This document shows, piece by piece, positions 3,087 to 55,114 of a DNA stretch of 64,000 bases. The stretch's first letter is position 1. Each line of letters starts with the position of its first letter. The translations under genes were made by a program, and so were the position numbers. Origin of the DNA: Escherichia coli (lineage in GTDB: Bacteria; Pseudomonadota; Gammaproteobacteria; Enterobacterales; Enterobacteriaceae); assembly GCF_044324785.1 (NCBI RefSeq), contig NZ_CP172127.1; one strand, 5' to 3'. The notes below the pieces were generated by a model, which was not told where the DNA came from, searched no databases, and worked only from the letters and a program-made list of their open reading frames with translations.

Positions 3087-3162
3087 TGGTGGCCCCTGCT
3101 GGACTTGAACCAGCGACCAAGCGATTATGAGTCGCCTGCTCTAACCACTGAGCTAAGGGGCC
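3087..3162 (-). tRNA. ileX: tRNA-Ile2 (anticodon CAU, lysidine-modified), with encoded CCA
   Basis: Reverse complement reads GGCCCCTTAGCTCAGTGGTTAGAGCAGGCGACTCATAATCGCTTGGTCGCTGGTTCAAGTCCAGCAGGGGCCACCA: cloverleaf with CAT anticodon and 3' CCA. Confidence 0.92.
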
Positions 3163-23943: not shown

Positions 23944-24021
23944 CCGGAAAGCGGTTCACAGATCTCGCTTCGAACCTGGCAGGCCTATTGACGCTGTTGT
24001 TTTTTCAACCTAGAGTAAAGG

Positions 24022-24170
24022 AACAAGGGTAAGGGAGGATTTCTCCCCCCTCTGAATTGGTTGTTAATAAGCCTGGAAACTTACTAGTAACAACACAATC
24101 AGTATGATGACGAGCTTCATCATAACCCTTTCCTTCTATAAGGCCCCTTCCTCGGGAGGGGCTTTCCCGT
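24022..24170 (+). ncRNA. sibE: Sib-type antisense sRNA (antitoxin), copy 1; ends approximate
   Basis: Sigma70-like promoter TTGACG-17-TAGAGT at 23988-24016; transcript would be fully complementary to the minus-strand ibs ORF; hairpin gccccttcctcgggaggggc plus T-rich tail near 24145-24170. The D/E label is positional inference from K-12 order. Confidence 0.6.
24064..24123 (-). CDS. ibsE: Ibs-family 19-aa hydrophobic toxin peptide MMKLVIILIVLLLVSFQAY
   Basis: Reverse complement is ATGATGAAGCTCGTCATCATACTGATTGTGTTGTTACTAGTAAGTTTCCAGGCTTATTAA; classic Ibs peptide; the overlapping plus-strand track ORF is an artefact. The D/E label is positional inference. Confidence 0.75.
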   Translation of the reverse strand: MMKLVIILIVLLLVSFQAY

Positions 24171-24397
24171 TTCAGCTCCTTGCTGACTCCCCGATTGTTG
24201 ATGAGCGCCAGACCCCGCGCAACGCTTTCCCAGAGGCAGTTTTCCTTTCCCCGAGCGGTCACGCAAAACGTTGCAACAGCCTGATCATTTGCACCTTTTA
24301 GCGGAACGCAGATATAAAAAATCCCCGGTTTTTTGGGCCAGGGATATGTGTTAATGAAACCTTCTTGACGCTGTTTTTTTTTCAACCTAAAGTAAAG

Positions 24398-24548
24398 GAA
24401 CAAGGGTGAGGGAGGATTTCTCCCCCCTCTGATTGGCTGTTAGTAAGCGTGGAAACTTATCAGTAACAACACAATCAGTATGATGATGAGCTTCATCATA
24501 ACCCTTTCCTTATACAAGGCCCCTTCTTCGGGAGGGGCTTTCCCGTTT
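24398..24548 (+). ncRNA. sibD: Sib-type antisense sRNA (antitoxin), copy 2; ends approximate
   Basis: Promoter TTGACG-17-TAAAGT at 24366-24394; complementary to the second ibs ORF; hairpin ggccccttcttcgggaggggc downstream. Confidence 0.6.
24440..24499 (-). CDS. ibsD: Ibs-family 19-aa hydrophobic toxin peptide MMKLIIILIVLLLISFHAY
   Basis: Reverse complement is ATGATGAAGCTCATCATCATACTGATTGTGTTGTTACTGATAAGTTTCCACGCTTACTAA. Confidence 0.75.
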   Translation of the reverse strand: MMKLIIILIVLLLISFHAY

Positions 24549-26248
24549 CAGCCCCTTGCTGACTTCCCGATTGTTGATGAACGCCGGACCCCGCGCAATG
24601 CTTTCCCAGAGGCAGTTTTGCCTTCCCCGAGCGGTCACGCAAAATGCTGCAACAGCCCGATCATTTGCACTTTTTATCGGAACGCAGATATAAAGAATCC
24701 CCGGCTTTTTGGGCCAGGGATGTTCATAGTTGAAAATTTATTCTACGTTTTCTGCGACGGGAGTTGTTGAGGTTAAGGGGGAAGTCAATGCCGCCAGCGA
24801 GCCGCCTGAAACGCCAATTTCATTGAGTAAGGAGTCAATCAGCGGTGCTTGTGTGCGGTAAGAGAGTGCGGCTGATAACGCTTGTTCCGCCAGGTTTCCG
24901 CCCCCCACATTACCCGTGTTTGCATCACCCGCAGCGCTGCCACGATTCAGACCATCGACCTGAATAATCTTGATACCGTCAATAGATTTCATCGGCTCAA
25001 CGGATTTTTCTATTACCGCAGGTAGCGCCTGCAACAAGGCCAGTTTGAATTTAAGGCTGGTTTGTTCATCAGAAAGTACGTTGATAGCATCGTTCAGCGC
25101 ACGTTGTGCTTCTGCTTCCGCCAGACCCTTTTTACGTGTAGCTTCGGCTAACTCAACGATAGCCGCCGCCTGCATCTCTGCGGCTTCTTTTTCTGCTTTT
25201 GCCCGGACAGTCAGTTCAACTGCTTTGGTTTCTGCATCCTGCGCGGCAGCGATTAGGGCAACTTGTTTAGCACGATCGGCTTCTGCGGTCTGGCGAGTGG
25301 TTTCTACGTTTTGTTGGGCGCTTACTGCTTCTGCGAGTGCAAGGTTAGCACGCGCTTCTGCCTGGGACTGTTGTTCCGATTTGGCGGCAATAGCGATCGA
25401 TTTCGTCTGGTTGGCGATTTCGGTGACCTGCTGCTGTTCGATCTCTTTAATGCGAACTTCACGTTCAGCTTCAACTTTTCTGGAACGGACGGCCTGTTCG
25501 CGGTCGATTTCCGTTTCCTGAATCTGTCGTTCAGCCAGAATTCGCGTCTGCTCTGCTTCCCGACGACGCTCGGCCTCAAAAGCTGCAATTTTCGCATTCT
25601 GCTCAGCGGTACGGGTTTTAACCTGCTGCTCCTGTTCAAGCGTCATAAACGCTTCTTGTTGTTCAATCTCCAGCTTCCGCGAAAGCGCATCACGATTTTT
25701 CTCACGCACCGCAACTTCTACATCCTGTTCAACTTCGTTACGTTCGCGACGACGGCGCTCCGTCTCCTGCGTCAGCTTGGTTAAACCTTCGGCGTCAAAG
25801 GCGTTGTTAGGATTGAAATGTTCTTTCGACGTCTGGTTAAAGTTGGTAAGTGAAACGCTTTCCAGTTCCAGACCGTTTTTCGACAGATCTTCAGCTACGG
25901 TATTTTGTACTCCCTGCACGAAGTTCTCGCGGGTATCCTGTAACTCATGCATGGTCATTTGTGCAGCTGTTGCACGGAGGGCATCGACGAATTTATCTTC
26001 AACCAACATACGTAAATCTTCTGGTGATAGCGTGCGTTGCCCCAACGTTTGGGCAGCGGTGGCAATCCCTTCTACTGAAGGTTTTACCCGCACAAAGAAA
26101 GCGACTACTACATCGACGCGCATACGATCTTTCGTAATCAGGCTATCAATGGTTGAGCGGCTGACTTCCAGCTTCAGAGTATTCATATTGATGGGGATTA
26201 TTTCATGAAAGATCGGCATCACGATTGCGCCACCGCTCATTACCACTT

Positions 26249-26257
26249 TTTGCCCAC
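26249..26257. repeat. Target-site duplication TTTGCCCAC (left copy)
   Basis: Identical 9-mer directly abuts both ends of the IS (26249-26257 and 27315-27323). Confidence 0.9.
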
Positions 26258-27314
26258 GGCTTTGTTGAATAAATCAGATTTCGGGTAAGTCTCCCCCGTA
26301 GCGGGTTGTGTTTTCAGGCAATACGCACGCTTTCAGGCATACCTGCTTTCGTCATTTTGTTCAGCGCTCGTACCAGGGCCATAGCCTCCGCAACCTGACC
26401 ATCGTAGTCACGCAGCGTCAGTGAACCCCCGAACAGCTGTTTTACCCGGTACATCGCCGTTTCCGCTATCGAGCGACGGTTGTAATCTGTTGTCCATTTC
26501 CACCGCGCATTACTCCCGGTCATTCGCTGATTAGCCACTGCACGGTTACGGTCTGCATATTCACCGGGCCAGTAACCCGCACCTTTTCGGGGAGGGATAA
26601 GCGCGCTGATTTTCTTACGCCGCAGTTCATCGTGACATAGCCGGGTATCGTAAGCGCCATCGGCGGCGGCTGACCTGATTTTCCGGTGGGTTTGCCGGAT
26701 TAACCCGGGGAAGGCCTCTGAGTCCGTAACGTTGTTCAGCGACAGGTCAGCGCAGATGATTTCATGTGTTTTACTGTCAACGGCGAGATGCAGCTTACGC
26801 CAGATACGGCGGCGTTCCTGGCCATGCTTTTTGACTTTCCACTCGCCTTCACCGAAGACCTTCAGCCCGGTGGAATCAATTACCAGGTGTGCGATTTCAC
26901 CCCGGGTGGGCGTTTTGAAACTGACATTAACCGACTTTGCCCGCCTGCTGACACAGCTGTAATCCGGGCAGCGTAGCGGAACGTTCATCAGAGAAAAAAT
27001 GGAATCAATAAAGCCCTGCGCAGCCCGCAGGGTCAGCCTGAATACGCGTTTAATGACCAGCACAGTAGTGATGGCAAGGTCAGAATAGCGCTGAGGTCTG
27101 CCTCGTGAAGAAGGTGTTGCTGACTCATACCAGGCCTGAATAGCTTCATCATCCAGCCAGAAAGTTATGGAGCCACGGTTGATGAGGGCTTTATTGTAGG
27201 TGGGCCAGTTGGTGATTTTGAACTTTTGCTTTGCCACGGAACGGTCTGCGTTGTCGGGAAGATACGTGATCTGATCCTTCAACTCAGCAAAAGTTCGATT
27301 TATTCAACAAAGCC
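26258..27314 (-). mobile_element. IS903-group insertion sequence (IS5 family), 1057 bp with 18-bp terminal inverted repeats GGCTTTGTTGAATAAATC
   Basis: Left IR at 26258-26275, right IR (reverse complement) at 27297-27314; length exactly 1057 bp; single transposase ORF; 9-bp TSD as expected for IS903. Confidence 0.93.
26314..27282 (-). CDS. IS903-type DDE transposase
   Basis: 322-aa ORF (TTG start in track) MKDQITYLPDNADRSVAKQKFKITNWPTYNKALINRGSITFWLDD...; lies within the IS boundaries. Confidence 0.9.
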   Translation of the reverse strand: MKDQITYLPDNADRSVAKQKFKITNWPTYNKALINRGSITFWLDDEAIQAWYESATPSSRGRPQRYSDLAITTVLVIKRVFRLTLRAAQGFIDSIFSLMNVPLRCPDYSCVSRRAKSVNVSFKTPTRGEIAHLVIDSTGLKVFGEGEWKVKKHGQERRRIWRKLHLAVDSKTHEIICADLSLNNVTDSEAFPGLIRQTHRKIRSAAADGAYDTRLCHDELRRKKISALIPPRKGAGYWPGEYADRNRAVANQRMTGSNARWKWTTDYNRRSIAETAMYRVKQLFGGSLTLRDYDGQVAEAMALVRALNKMTKAGMPESVRIA

Positions 27315-27323
27315 TTTGCCCAC
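27315..27323. repeat. Target-site duplication TTTGCCCAC (right copy)
   Basis: See left copy. Confidence 0.9.
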
Positions 27324-27491
27324 CTAAACCAGTACGAACAAAAGCTTGCTCTGCCGAAGCGCGACGATAGAGCCTGGCGAAAATAATTCCAATAATAAAC
27401 AGAATGCATACGGCAATAATCGCGGTAAACATCCAGGAGGGCACAGAATTAACAATATCATCCATTATTAAATTTCCTTTTGATTAATAAA

Positions 27492-28121
27492 TTACAATAT
27501 TTGGGGCCAGGGATTGTTTTCCGCCAAATATCGCGTTGCAGAAAGTCGGCAAATAATTAACACTTTGTCTCCTTTAGTGAAAATTTTTCCTTCTTCAGGC
27601 TCCAGTAGTAAATAATGTATTTGGCCAAATTGATCGGTGAGTTTTCCTTCGCAGGGATTACCTGAAGTGGCCTGATGACCGGTAATTAACGCCATGCTAC
27701 CAATATATTCTTCTTCTGTAATAGCTGAACTATGGTCGCGTGGAATCCAGGGCGCAACTATTTTACCGGTATAATGCACCGCAATAATCGTAAACAGTAA
27801 ACTGACAGGAACCACGAACAGGTTCGAAAGTGGTGATTGCCAGACCATGATGCAGGCATGCTGCAACAGGATGCCAATAAGACCAAAAAAACCAGCCAGT
27901 AAGCAGAGAACGACGAGAGCTGGCAATCTTCCGATATTGAGATAATGAAGTGCCTGGCTAATATGACCTGTGGTTATGGAATCATAATGGTCAAGATGTG
28001 CATCAAGAGCACCGGAGAGCATGTGACCGCAGATAAGCGCAAAAATTTCTAAAAGGCCGATCAACAGTACAAAGGAAATAGCGAAAAGATAAGGGGTATT
28101 ATAGTCGGCGAATAAAATCAT
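27492..28121 (-). CDS. yqiJ: NfeD-like inner membrane protein YqiJ (partner of YqiK)
   Basis: 209 aa, multiple TM helices; directly upstream of yqiK on the same strand. Confidence 0.88.
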
Positions 28122-28389: not shown

Positions 28390-28590
28390 ATGGATCATAG
28401 TCTTAATTCTTTAAATAATTTCGATTTCCTGGCGCGTAGTTTTGCCAGAATGCACGCAGAAGGTCGCCCGGTCGATATTCTGGCCGTTACTGGTAACATG
28501 GATGAAGAACATAGAACCTGGTTTTGCGCACGTTATGCCTGGTATTGCCAACAGATGATGCAAACCAGAGAACTTGAATTAGAACACTGA
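28390..28590 (+). CDS. glgS: Surface composition regulator GlgS
   Basis: 66 aa from ATG 28390 [66 protein letters not shown]. Confidence 0.93.
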
Positions 28591-28595
28591 TATTA

Positions 28596-28618
28596 CGGGC
28601 CGTCTGGCCCGTTTTTGT
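28596..28618 (+). terminator. glgS rho-independent terminator
   Basis: gggccgtctggcccg hairpin followed by TTTTTGTGTT. Confidence 0.7.
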
Positions 28619-28624
28619 GTTGCT

Positions 28625-28924
28625 TTATTCTGCTTTATCAATAGGCGGGATAGCCGGAGGAGATTGAAGATCTGCTACCGAATTATTGCGCGCTTCCAGT
28701 TCACTGATGCGCTGCTCTAGTAATGCCAGTTTCTCACGAGTCCGTAACAGGACTTGCGTCTGTACGTCGAATTCTTCGCGGCTCACCAGATCGAGACGCG
28801 TCAGCTGCGCTTGTAGGGTTTGGCGGATTTTTTTCTCCACATCTTCCCCGAACTCCCTGATTCCTTTAGGCATTGATTCGTGAACCTGGCGAGCGATTTG
28901 CTCAATTTTTTTCGGGTCAATCAT
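28625..28924 (-). CDS. ubiK: Ubiquinone biosynthesis accessory factor UbiK (YqiC)
   Basis: Coiled-coil protein [60 protein letters not shown]...; start chosen at the MIDPKK Met, since the track ORF extends further upstream. Confidence 0.85.
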
Positions 28925-29044: not shown

Positions 29045-29290
29045 CGCTTATTCTCAGGGCGGGGCGAAATTCCCCACCGGCGGTAAATCAACTCAGTTGA
29101 AAGCCCGCGAGCGCTTTGGGTGCGAACTCAAAGGACAGCAGATCCGGTGTAATTCCGGGGCCGACGGTTAGAGTCCGGATGGGAGAGAGTAACGATTCTG
29201 TCGGGCATGGACCCGCTCACGTTATTTTGGCTATATGCCGCCACTCCTAAGACTGCCCTGATTCTGGTAACCATAATTTTAGTGAGGTTT
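29045..29290 (+). ncRNA. FMN riboswitch (RFN element) and ribB leader
   Basis: Conserved RFN core AGGGCGGGGCGAAATTCCCCACCGGCGGTAAA...AGCCCGCGAGCGC...CAGATCCGGTGTAATTCCGGGGCCGACGGTTAGAGTCCGGATGGGAGAG directly upstream of ribB. Confidence 0.85.
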
Positions 29291-48736: not shown

Positions 48737-49216
48737 ATGTCAAATATCATATACTTATCAATTAAAGGAAAAACACAAGGTTTGATCTCTGAGGGCTGTG
48801 GTTCGTATGCATCTATTGGTAATAAATATCAAATAAATCATGTGGATGAAATTTTTGTTTTACAGTTCGACCATTCTTTAAGTCGAGAATATAATGTAGT
48901 GCATCATCCCATAAAATTTTACAAGCCAATAGATAAATCCTCTCCTTTATTAAATGCTGCTCTTTCTGAAAATGAAGAGTTATCAGCTGTATTTAATTTT
49001 TATAGAATTAATTCTGGCGGTTGTATTGAAAGGTTTTACACAATTGAATTGCAAGGGGCATATTTATCGAATATTCTGACTTGTTATCCACACTCAATTA
49101 CACATGCGGGTAATCAACCGGAAGAGGTCATTGTTCTTAATTATAAAAATATAACATGGAAGCACCATATCGCGAGTACGGAATCATATAGCTGTTGGGA
49201 AGAAAGGATTTTTTAA
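48737..49216 (+). CDS. hcp: Hcp-family protein (type VI secretion tube protein), orphan copy
   Basis: 159 aa; conserved Hcp blocks: N-terminal Y-x-I-K-G...QGLI-x-GC, FVLQFDH, HHPIKFYKPIDKSSPLLNAAL, VIVLNYKNITWKH; RBS ggag 7 nt upstream; AT-rich context. Confidence 0.85.
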   Translation: MSNIIYLSIKGKTQGLISEGCGSYASIGNKYQINHVDEIFVLQFDHSLSREYNVVHHPIKFYKPIDKSSPLLNAALSENEELSAVFNFYRINSGGCIERFYTIELQGAYLSNILTCYPHSITHAGNQPEEVIVLNYKNITWKHHIASTESYSCWEERIF

Positions 49217-49218
49217 AT

Positions 49219-49926
49219 ATGAAAAGCGATCTCACTATAAAAAATAGATATTGTACAATTCCACAAACGAAGTTCCGTAAATGGGATGAAATGGACGTTT
49301 TACTCTGGAAGTTAGGAAAAAATGATTCGCGTCGCCGTTCAGGAGTATATTATTTAAATGCTTATAAAGATGCATATGTACAATATAATAGGGACAAAAT
49401 AATTAAACATGCATATGCCGCAGGGATTCGTCCAGAGTTATTGGGCGGCGTGGCCTGGATTGAGTCAGGAGGTATGCCTGAAAATTATAAGTTTCAGATA
49501 TATGAAACAAAAAGAATGATCGGATCGTTAGATATGCCTGAAAATAAAACATCATTTGGCTCAATGGGTATACAAATACGAACCGCAGCGATTACTCTAG
49601 GCCTTGACCCTTCAGAATTAACTACCAGAAATCAGTTAGAGTTAGCGACATGCCTGATGGAAGATGATTTTACCTTTAAAATTGCTGCTACTCATTTAAG
49701 AGATCTTGCCCTTTTTGATTATCCCTCTTCGGCAACACTGTATATGACGAATGAGCAGTATATTATGGCTGGTATTAGATATAATCGTGGTGTTGAACGA
49801 GATTTGGGTTTTTTTATTTATTTAATTAATAATTTGCCTGCGCGTGATACAGATGATTATAAATTCATCTCTTATGGTATGAGGTTGTTAGAGATTAGAG
49901 AACATATCAAAAAATTGATTAATTAG
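49219..49926 (+). CDS. Hypothetical protein with lytic-transglycosylase/lysozyme-like motifs; candidate Hcp-associated effector
   Basis: 235 aa from ATG 49219 (RBS ggaagaaagga); motifs WIESGG, SMGIQI and AGIRYNRG with spacing like the ES / GLMQ / AYNxG motifs of family-1 lytic transglycosylases; start 3 nt after the hcp stop. Confidence 0.6.
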   Translation: MKSDLTIKNRYCTIPQTKFRKWDEMDVLLWKLGKNDSRRRSGVYYLNAYKDAYVQYNRDKIIKHAYAAGIRPELLGGVAWIESGGMPENYKFQIYETKRMIGSLDMPENKTSFGSMGIQIRTAAITLGLDPSELTTRNQLELATCLMEDDFTFKIAATHLRDLALFDYPSSATLYMTNEQYIMAGIRYNRGVERDLGFFIYLINNLPARDTDDYKFISYGMRLLEIREHIKKLIN

Positions 49927-49935
49927 TAATCAGAG

Positions 49936-50265
49936 ATGTTAAAAAAACAACTACTATCAATATTTGAAGCACTATTATACATAATGCTTACTTATTGGTT
50001 AATAGATGCTTTTTTTGCTTTCAATAAGTATGACTGGATGCTTGAGTCGGGAGACAATATTTGCAGTATACCTTCCGTTTCAGGCGAAGATCGTATATTG
50101 CAAGCAATGATTGCAGCATTTTTTCTTCTGACGCCACTTATTATTCTTATCTTAAGAAAACTCTTTATGCGGGAAATGTTCGAGTTTTGGCTATATGTAT
50201 TCACGCTCGTTATTTGTTTGGTTTGTGGTTGGTGGCTTTTTTGGGGACGGTTTATATTTTGCTAA
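49936..50265 (+). CDS. Small 3-TM inner-membrane protein; candidate cognate immunity protein (possibly the YgiZ orthologue)
   Basis: 109 aa with three hydrophobic helices; immediately downstream of the putative effector; AT-rich. Confidence 0.55.
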   Translation: MLKKQLLSIFEALLYIMLTYWLIDAFFAFNKYDWMLESGDNICSIPSVSGEDRILQAMIAAFFLLTPLIILILRKLFMREMFEFWLYVFTLVICLVCGWWLFWGRFIFC

Positions 50266-53398: not shown

Positions 53399-53506
53399 TG
53401 GAGAATCTTTACCGGAGTGTGAGCCACATCACTCGCGATAAGTTTGAGCGAACAATGCCACAGGCGTATTGTTGTCGGGCTTATAATTTCTCCGGTAAGG
53501 AATACC

Positions 53507-55114
53507 ATGTATACGCGAAATTTATTATGGCTGGTCAGCCTGGTAAGTGCGGCTCCTCTCTACGCTGCTGACGTTCCCGCCAACACACCGCTCGCCCCGC
53601 AACAAGTCTTTCGTTACAACAATCATAGCGACCCAGGTACGCTCGACCCGCAAAAGGTAGAGGAGAATACTGCCGCGCAGATTGTGCTGGATCTGTTTGA
53701 AGGTCTGGTATGGATGGACGGTGAAGGCCAGGTGCAGCCCGCTCAGGCTGAACGCTGGGAGATACTGGACGGCGGCAAGCGCTATATTTTCCATCTGCGT
53801 AGCGGTTTGCAGTGGTCAGACGGTCAGCCTCTGACGGCAGAGGATTTTGTCCTCGGCTGGCAGCGCGCGGTTGACCCGAAAACGGCAAGCCCTTTTGCTG
53901 GCTATCTGGCACAGGCGCACATTAACAATGCCGCGGCTATTGTTGCGGGTAAAGCAGATGTTACATCGCTGGGTGTCAAAGCGATGGATGATCGTACTCT
54001 TGAAGTTACGCTTGAGCAGCCGGTTCCTTGGTTCACGACGATGCTCGCCTGGCCGACGCTGTTCCCGGTTCCCCATCATGTCATCGCGAAATATGGCGAT
54101 AGCTGGAGTAAGCCTGCGCATATGGTTTACAACGGTGCCTTTGTGCTTGAACAGTGGGTAGTTAACGAAAAGATTACTGCACGCAAAAATCCAAAGTACC
54201 GCGATGCGCAACATACAGTATTGCAACAGGTTGAGTATCTGGCGCTGGATAATTCGGTCACCGGCTATAACCGCTATCGCGCGGGAGAGGTCGATCTCAC
54301 CTGGGTTCCGGCGCAGCAAATTCCCACCATTGAAAAATCACTGCCTGGCGAGCTACGAATTATCCCGCGTCTGAACAGCGAATATTACAACTTTAACCTT
54401 GAGAAACCGCCATTTAACGATGTGCGGGTGCGTCGGGCGCTATATCTTACGGTTGATCGACAGCTTATTGCGCAAAAGGTACTGGGGTTGAGAACGCCCG
54501 CAACCACGCTGACGCCGCCAGAGGTAAAAGGCTTTAGCGCGACGACGTTCGATGAACTGCAAAAGCCAATGAGTGAGCGTGTCGCGATGGCAAAAGCCTT
54601 GCTGAAACAGGCGGGATACGACGCCTCTCATCCGCTACGCTTTGAGCTGTTCTACAACAAGTACGATCTGCATGAAAAAACCGCGATAGCGTTGTCTTCC
54701 GAATGGAAAAAATGGCTGGGTGCACAGGTGACGCTGCGCACAATGGAGTGGAAAACTTATCTTGATGCCCGACGAGCCGGTGATTTCATGCTGTCGCGGC
54801 AGTCGTGGGATGCGACGTATAATGATGCTTCCAGCTTCCTGAACACGCTCAAAAGCGATAGTGAAGAAAACGTCGGTCACTGGAAAAATGCGCAGTATGA
54901 CGCCTTACTAAACCAGGCCACGCAGATCACTGATGCGACAAAGCGTAATGCGTTGTATCAGCAGGCAGAAGTGATCATCAACCAACAGGCACCGCTGATT
55001 CCTATCTACTATCAGCCGTTAATCAAACTGCTTAAACCCTACGTTGGCGGTTTTCCGCTGCATAATCCCCAGGATTATGTCTACAGCAAAGAGTTGTATA
55101 TCAAGGCACATTGA
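53507..55114 (+). CDS. ygiS: Periplasmic solute-binding protein family 5 (oligopeptide/bile-salt binding) YgiS
   Basis: 535 aa from MYTRNLLWLVSLVSAAPLYA signal peptide. Confidence 0.9.
   Translation: MYTRNLLWLVSLVSAAPLYAADVPANTPLAPQQVFRYNNHSDPGTLDPQKVEENTAAQIVLDLFEGLVWMDGEGQVQPAQAERWEILDGGKRYIFHLRSGLQWSDGQPLTAEDFVLGWQRAVDPKTASPFAGYLAQAHINNAAAIVAGKADVTSLGVKAMDDRTLEVTLEQPVPWFTTMLAWPTLFPVPHHVIAKYGDSWSKPAHMVYNGAFVLEQWVVNEKITARKNPKYRDAQHTVLQQVEYLALDNSVTGYNRYRAGEVDLTWVPAQQIPTIEKSLPGELRIIPRLNSEYYNFNLEKPPFNDVRVRRALYLTVDRQLIAQKVLGLRTPATTLTPPEVKGFSATTFDELQKPMSERVAMAKALLKQAGYDASHPLRFELFYNKYDLHEKTAIALSSEWKKWLGAQVTLRTMEWKTYLDARRAGDFMLSRQSWDATYNDASSFLNTLKSDSEENVGHWKNAQYDALLNQATQITDATKRNALYQQAEVIINQQAPLIPIYYQPLIKLLKPYVGGFPLHNPQDYVYSKELYIKAH

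Follow-up and report, generated by a model that had tools for sequence, protein, structure and literature searches.

Simple insertion of an IS903B element in yqiK on the chromosome of an Escherichia coli strain

The name IS903B comes from the copy in transposon Tn2680 of plasmid Rts1, according to the statement in PMC12670165 that cites Mollet et al. 1985, and members of the IS903 group are reportedly >94% identical to each other (PMC12670165). The Rts1 element is 1057 bp long, with 18-bp ends, a 9-bp target-site duplication and a single 307-residue transposase. IS102, from plasmid pSC101, and the IS903 of Tn903 are sister elements in this group; IS102 has the same architecture and identical inverted repeats. 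In Klebsiella pneumoniae, IS903B inactivates chromosomal genes by simple insertion, as described for mgrB (PMC7556023), and knock-outs of the same kind in Klebsiella O-antigen rfb genes and wbaZ are the subject of PMC10569121 and PMC9769513. A preferred IS903 target motif, WTTYA-N9-TRAAW, which flanks the duplication, is given in PMC2577343.

The yqiK gene of E. coli codes for a flotillin-like protein, and its pairing with yqiJ has been described (PMC10434171). In that work, no phenotype in growth, biofilm or stress was seen on deletion of yqiK, a quadruple deletion of SPFH genes likewise had none except for effects traced to hflKC, and natively expressed YqiK-GFP was undetectable (PMC10434171). 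For effects on motility and ampicillin, the same paper refers to one earlier study.

We analysed a 64-kb window, i.e. the whole stretch of E. coli DNA under study, in which an IS903B element lies within yqiK. The element shares with the Rts1 copy its length, the size of its ends and duplication and its single transposase gene, and with IS102 its architecture and inverted repeats. The locus also resembles the Klebsiella knock-outs, in that a chromosomal gene appears to be inactivated by simple insertion. In contrast, the Klebsiella knock-outs are selectable (colistin resistance, serotype change, phage resistance), whereas yqiK loss has no established strong phenotype (PMC10434171). The case is a textbook example of the simple insertion of an insertion sequence that is very common; it is known both in kind and as an element, and only the insertion site is particular to the lineage.

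The IS903B element and its relatives

An earlier note, made on this DNA from its sequence, had described a 1057-bp element of the IS903 group, with 18-bp terminal inverted repeats, a single transposase ORF and flanking direct repeats. All of these claims were borne out, and the element and the features around it are listed in Table 1. The inverted repeats match at 18/18 positions, and their similarity ends at base 18, as determined both by direct reading and with a script; absence of the repeats on re-inspection, which the note gave as an observation that would speak against it, was thus not what we found. The direct repeats form a perfect 9-bp duplication that cannot be extended in either direction and that reads GTGGGCAAA on the yqiK strand. 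Together, the element and both copies of the duplication make up positions 26249-27323.

Table 1. Coordinates of the insertion and of the genes that surround it
Feature	Position	Strand	Remarks
IS903B insertion sequence (IS5 family, IS903 group)	26258..27314	-	1057 bp
Target-site duplication, copy 1	26249..26257		TTTGCCCAC; identical 9-mer on both sides of IS903B
Target-site duplication, copy 2	27315..27323		TTTGCCCAC; 9/9 identical to copy 1
Terminal inverted repeat IRR	26258..26275		GGCTTTGTTGAATAAATC; end downstream of the transposase stop codon
Terminal inverted repeat IRL	27297..27314		Transposase-proximal end; exact reverse complement of IRR
Transposase ORF, 307 aa	26314..27237	-	GTG start at 27237, stop codon at 26314-26316
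yqiK 5' fragment, 53-aa ORF	27304..27465	-	Native residues 1-50, then R-L-C and a stop codon from the IS end
yqiK 3' fragment	24738..26257	-	Native codon 51 onward; open from GTG 26246 or ATG 26240
yqiJ (NfeD-like/OB-fold)	27492..28121	-	Intact; directly upstream of yqiK

A search of the 64-kb window for the 18-mer end, with up to three mismatches allowed, returned two sites, both of them the ends of the element. Shuffled versions of the window gave a mean of 0.05 matches, and two or more matches were obtained in 0/100 shuffles. IS903B is therefore present as a single copy in the window, and its repeats are not due to chance. A composite transposon was also considered and ruled out, the ends of IS903B being present as one copy in the window. 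A length of about 1057 bp, perfect 18-bp ends and a 9-bp duplication are the hallmarks of IS903B, and all of them were found. The Rts1 IS903B and IS102 have the same 18-bp ends, and 9-bp duplications also flank the Rts1 copy and the IS903B copies of two other E. coli lineages described below (isolate 23 and an ST167-like clade).

The single ORF is long, lies on the minus strand and is co-directional with yqiK. Its product, a DDE transposase of the expected size of about 307 residues, scores 357 bits against the IS5-family equivalog model NCBIfam NF033579 (cut-off 140 bits) and matches the Pfam domains DDE_Tnp_1_5 (4e-39) and DDE_Tnp_1 (7e-33). The reading frame is open from a TTG codon at 27282, 15 codons earlier, which corresponds to the 322-aa form in the RefSeq annotation. 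Residues D121, D193 and E259 are all present, as is the Y252-R255-E259-K266 spacing of the Y(2)R(3)E(6)K signature. These are reportedly the catalytic residues of IS903, from the work of the Derbyshire laboratory; a literature search for this assignment returned no relevant source.

At least 30 RefSeq copies from E. coli chromosomes and plasmids, all labelled 'IS5-like element IS903B family transposase', match the element with 100% identity over its 1057 bp. Of the 5426 complete E. coli genomes searched, 1993 carry an IS903B match, at a median of 2 places and a maximum of 47 per genome having any; matches of ≥99% come from at least 1054 E. coli records. In the plasmid collection, at least 5000 records match IS903B, mostly from Klebsiella and Escherichia among the matches listed.

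The earlier note had proposed an alignment to IS903 or IS102 references. We compared the element with the Rts1 IS903B (NC_003905) and with IS102, the IS903 of Tn903 (V00359) being left out, and this sharpened its identity to IS903B. Unlike a strict copy of the Rts1 type element, that of the window carries 31 substitutions over 1057 bp (97.07% nucleotide identity), and the two transposases are identical at 305/307 positions (99.3%), the differences being K156N and S189A (window to Rts1). An isoform is given the same IS name at about ≥95% nucleotide and ≥98% amino acid identity to the reference copy, and both values are exceeded with the Rts1 copy as the reference. The element is therefore the common E. 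coli isoform of IS903B. It is not IS102, because despite a gapless alignment across 1057 bp, its nucleotide identity to the latter is only 92.9%, with 75 mismatches.

The substitutions relative to the Rts1 copy are unevenly distributed: 28 of the 31 fall in element positions 321-552, a segment of 232 bp that corresponds to window positions 26578-26809. Positions 1-320 are identical across the window copy, the Rts1 copy and IS102. This clustering suggests that the element is a recombinant, mosaic variant among IS903-group elements.

The interrupted yqiK gene and its surroundings

In silico excision of the element and of one copy of the duplication gives an open yqiK frame of 1662 nt, i.e. 553 residues and a stop codon, in agreement with the restorable 554-codon frame claimed from the sequence beforehand. 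Across the former insertion site, the restored product reads ...FVRTGLGGQKVVMSGG... The flanks are exactly adjacent halves of one gene, which places the insertion inside yqiK, as also claimed, and the duplication corresponds to yqiK nucleotides 143-151, in codons 48-51. A comparison of yqiK integrity in related strains had been recommended; intact alleles of strains N3 and GF3-3 code for a protein, WP_000341036.1, that is identical to the restored YqiK. At the nucleotide level, the restored gene differs from the N3 allele at 31 positions, all of them synonymous. Divergence of this type indicates strong purifying selection on a protein whose knock-out has no clear phenotype.

The restored protein has the features that define YqiK, namely an N-terminal membrane segment, a Band_7 domain and a C-terminal Flot domain, with an NfeD-like yqiJ gene upstream; yqiJ is annotated in syntenic loci of other E. 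coli. The Pfam domains Band_7/SPFH and Flot span residues 39-192 and 406-530, respectively, and a hydrophobic segment was found by direct reading at about residues 12-31. The break after residue 50 separates this N-terminal hydrophobic anchor from most of the SPFH domain and from the Flot domain.

The DNA of the window belongs to the ordinary core chromosome of E. coli, with aer, rpoD, dnaG, ttd, glnE, hldE, yqiK, yqiJ, glgS, ubiK, ribB, tolC, parE, qseBC and parC. The 71-bp empty site is present exactly in N3 and in the ST167-like strain SCEC020007, and a 600-bp empty site is 100% identical to that of GF3-3. The right flank has its best complete-genome match in N3 (99.3%), and no very close relative was found among the complete E. 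coli genomes of the collection. GF3-3 was considered as a close relative and rejected, since its flanks are only 94.6-98.3% identical despite the perfectly matching empty site. An identical empty site amid divergent flanks indicates a recombination mosaic.

Several other features of the window were recorded. Two tandem genes for Sib antitoxin RNAs (Rfam RF00113; 142 and 150 bits) are located at 23988-24138 and 24365-24514, just downstream of yqiK; the 65-132-aa ORFs at these repeats are probably spurious, and GF3-3 has one annotated ibs copy. The ygiL-yqiGHI fimbrial operon is absent between glgS and ubiK (28590-28625), as it is in N3 and GF3-3; in the isolate 23 and ST167-like loci, yqiI, yqiH and usher genes directly follow glgS. 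A 1.7-kb segment between mdaB and qseC (48737-50265) is absent from N3. It contains an orphan Hcp/TssD gene (TIGR03344, 199 bits), followed by ORFs of 243 aa and of 109 aa, the latter hydrophobic, neither of which has an NCBIfam match, and its layout resembles that of an orphan type VI Hcp-effector-immunity islet. Between ygiV and parC, a stretch of 1.5 kb, which measures only about 240 bp in N3, is occupied by a 556-aa ORF at 53444-55114 that codes for a putative periplasmic solute-binding protein and is probably ygiS by the K-12 gene order. Finally, a tRNA gene between yqjH and mug (3090-3162, minus strand) and an FMN riboswitch upstream of ribB (29046-29194, plus strand) are ordinary features at their expected places.

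Origin of the insertion and alternative explanations

We are highly confident that this locus arose when an intact IS903B recently moved into chromosomal yqiK by simple transposition. By the established mechanism of IS903, the DDE transposase would bind the two 18-bp terminal inverted repeats and cut the ends of the element, these ends would be joined to a target whose two strands are cut 9 bp apart, and repair of the gaps would yield the 9-bp direct repeat. The insertion leaves a 53-aa N-terminal peptide, made up of 50 native residues including the membrane anchor and three residues from the IS, and a promoterless 3' fragment that codes for the bulk of the SPFH domain together with the coiled-coil region and the Flot domain.

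A query made up of the element and 300-bp flanks had no single-piece, full-length match in the complete E. coli genomes, so that this exact insertion is found in 0/5426 of them. The left junction was found elsewhere, through an exact match to the 500-aa protein of the yqiK fragment that starts at the ATG. It is present on a 2138-bp Logan contig of run SRR31073010, found in 2 samples, that is 100% identical to window positions 24147-26284. The first 27 bp of this contig belong to the IS end and precede the duplication, and it thus reproduces the junction base for base. Exact look-ups of the 53-aa ORF at the right junction and of the 502-aa GTG-start fragment found neither on record.

These data bear on two readings other than a recent insertion. 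The insertion might be an assembly artefact, with a repeated IS misplaced inside yqiK: many E. coli genomes carry several copies of IS903B, such repeats do cause mis-joins, and the absence of the exact insertion from all 5426 complete genomes would fit as well. However, a mis-join would produce neither a perfect 9-bp target duplication nor flanks that are exactly adjacent halves of one gene. Moreover, the junctions, whose irreproducibility would have pointed to a chimera according to the earlier note, recur on the left side in the independently assembled reads of SRR31073010, which argues against an artefact; we regard this explanation as extremely improbable. The element could also be an old, decayed or inactive relic that was fixed long ago. 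The GTG start codon of its transposase gene has no Shine-Dalgarno pairing (+0.3 kcal/mol), as a relic might; however, weak translation signals are the norm for the IS903 transposase. The inverted repeats and the duplication are undiverged, the transposase ORF is complete and keeps its catalytic residues, the copy is identical to many circulating ones, and neither yqiK fragment has a further lesion, which is why the insertion looks recent, as had been noted. That the restored product equals that of intact alleles and that the insertion is missing from all the complete genomes also speak against a relic, which is thus very improbable. None of the observations speaks against the structure described here.

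IS903B was found near yqiK in 20 of the 5426 complete genomes, in all cases at other sites. In isolate 23 (NZ_OW848980), it is inserted 78 bp further into yqiK, with the duplication GCTTCAGAG (equivalent to window positions 26171-26179) and a single mismatch to the window copy. About 18 genomes of an ST167-like clade (strains SCEC020007, Ec-050 and 'ST167' among others; accession NZ_CP025627, for example) have it in the yqiJ-yqiK spacer, with the duplication TTAATAAAT (equivalent to 27484-27492) and 11 mismatches to the window copy. The element, orientation and locus are the same as in the window, but the target sites and the duplications differ; therefore, the three insertions are independent events rather than one allele. 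They fall within 256 bp of native sequence with 40% GC. A literature search combining yqiK and IS903 returned only one paper, unrelated, on plasmid-borne yqiJK homologues.

This recurrence raises the possibility that the yqiK 5' end and the yqiJ-yqiK junction form a preferred target of IS903B, or that loss of yqiK expression has been repeatedly selected. Two further independent insertions so close by and in the same orientation, in an AT-rich stretch, would be in keeping with either. The flanks of the ST167-like duplication, read by eye, match the WTTYA-N9-TRAAW motif at 4/5 and 4/5 positions; in contrast, those of the window site, CACTT and CTAAA, fit poorly (1/5 and 3/5), although the motif describes a statistical preference and not a requirement for membership. 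Three events would share one orientation by chance about 1/4 of the time. Genomes devoid of a single-place match of ≥80% number 34 for the 600 bp at the yqiK 5' end versus 20 and 30 for the two remaining 600-bp stretches of the gene, hence no clear excess, in counts confounded by the different divergence of the slices and by a measure that mixes insertions with broken alignments. The phenotype-free deletion and the undetectable native expression (PMC10434171) also speak against this reading. Altogether, a hotspot or repeated selection appears unlikely, and the insertion in the window is readily described as an ordinary transposition event.

Another question is whether read-through, starting in the IS or at the yqiJ promoter, leads to expression of the 3' fragment as an N-terminally truncated YqiK that would be functional or dominant-negative. 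The earlier note was correct in that this fragment keeps in-frame GTG and ATG codons right after the junction, at 26246 (502 aa) and 26240 (500 aa); its suggestion that they might be used found no support. Their anti-Shine-Dalgarno pairing, -2.6 and -3.6 kcal/mol, respectively, is near the window background of -2.2 +/- 2.3 kcal/mol, compared with -5.6 kcal/mol for the native yqiK start. A later in-frame ATG at 26219 pairs better (-5.1 kcal/mol), gene prediction on the Logan contig of SRR31073010 yielded the 500-aa ORF, and read-through transcripts are possible as the IS is co-directional with yqiK. However, a scan for promoters and terminators found no more sites than in shuffled sequences, with no site at the IS end directed towards the 3' fragment, and an in-frame TGA at 26276-26274, in the IS end, closes the frame upstream and bars fusion translation. 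The product would also be devoid of the membrane anchor and of the first dozen SPFH residues. We thus consider a functional or dominant-negative truncated protein quite improbable.

Consequences for the strain

As the break splits the membrane anchor from the SPFH and Flot domains, the earlier proposal that YqiK is likely null is reasonable: full-length YqiK is probably not made, and the strain would be functionally yqiK-null. Downstream of yqiK there is no co-directional gene but only ibs/sib type I toxin-antitoxin repeats, so that polar effects on other protein-coding genes are not expected. The phenotype of yqiK::IS903B is expected to be mild or absent, in view of the published findings on yqiK deletion.

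Beyond annotation, the significance of this insertion is small, since it is the probable knock-out of a dispensable gene. In this strain, yqiK should be annotated as a pseudogene interrupted by IS903B. Present in 0/5426 complete genomes and in at least one public read set, yqiK::IS903B is usable as a lineage marker, and an intact chromosomal IS903B may represent a live source of further insertions. If the yqiJ-yqiK region were indeed a favoured target, or if silencing of the YqiJK flotillin module were repeatedly selected, including in the clinically important ST167-like lineage, the window would provide the third independent hit at one 256-bp stretch; that IS903B recurs at yqiJK in other lineages gives a minor clue to how IS903 chooses its targets. 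As a natural yqiK knock-out, the strain could serve studies of bacterial flotillin-like proteins.
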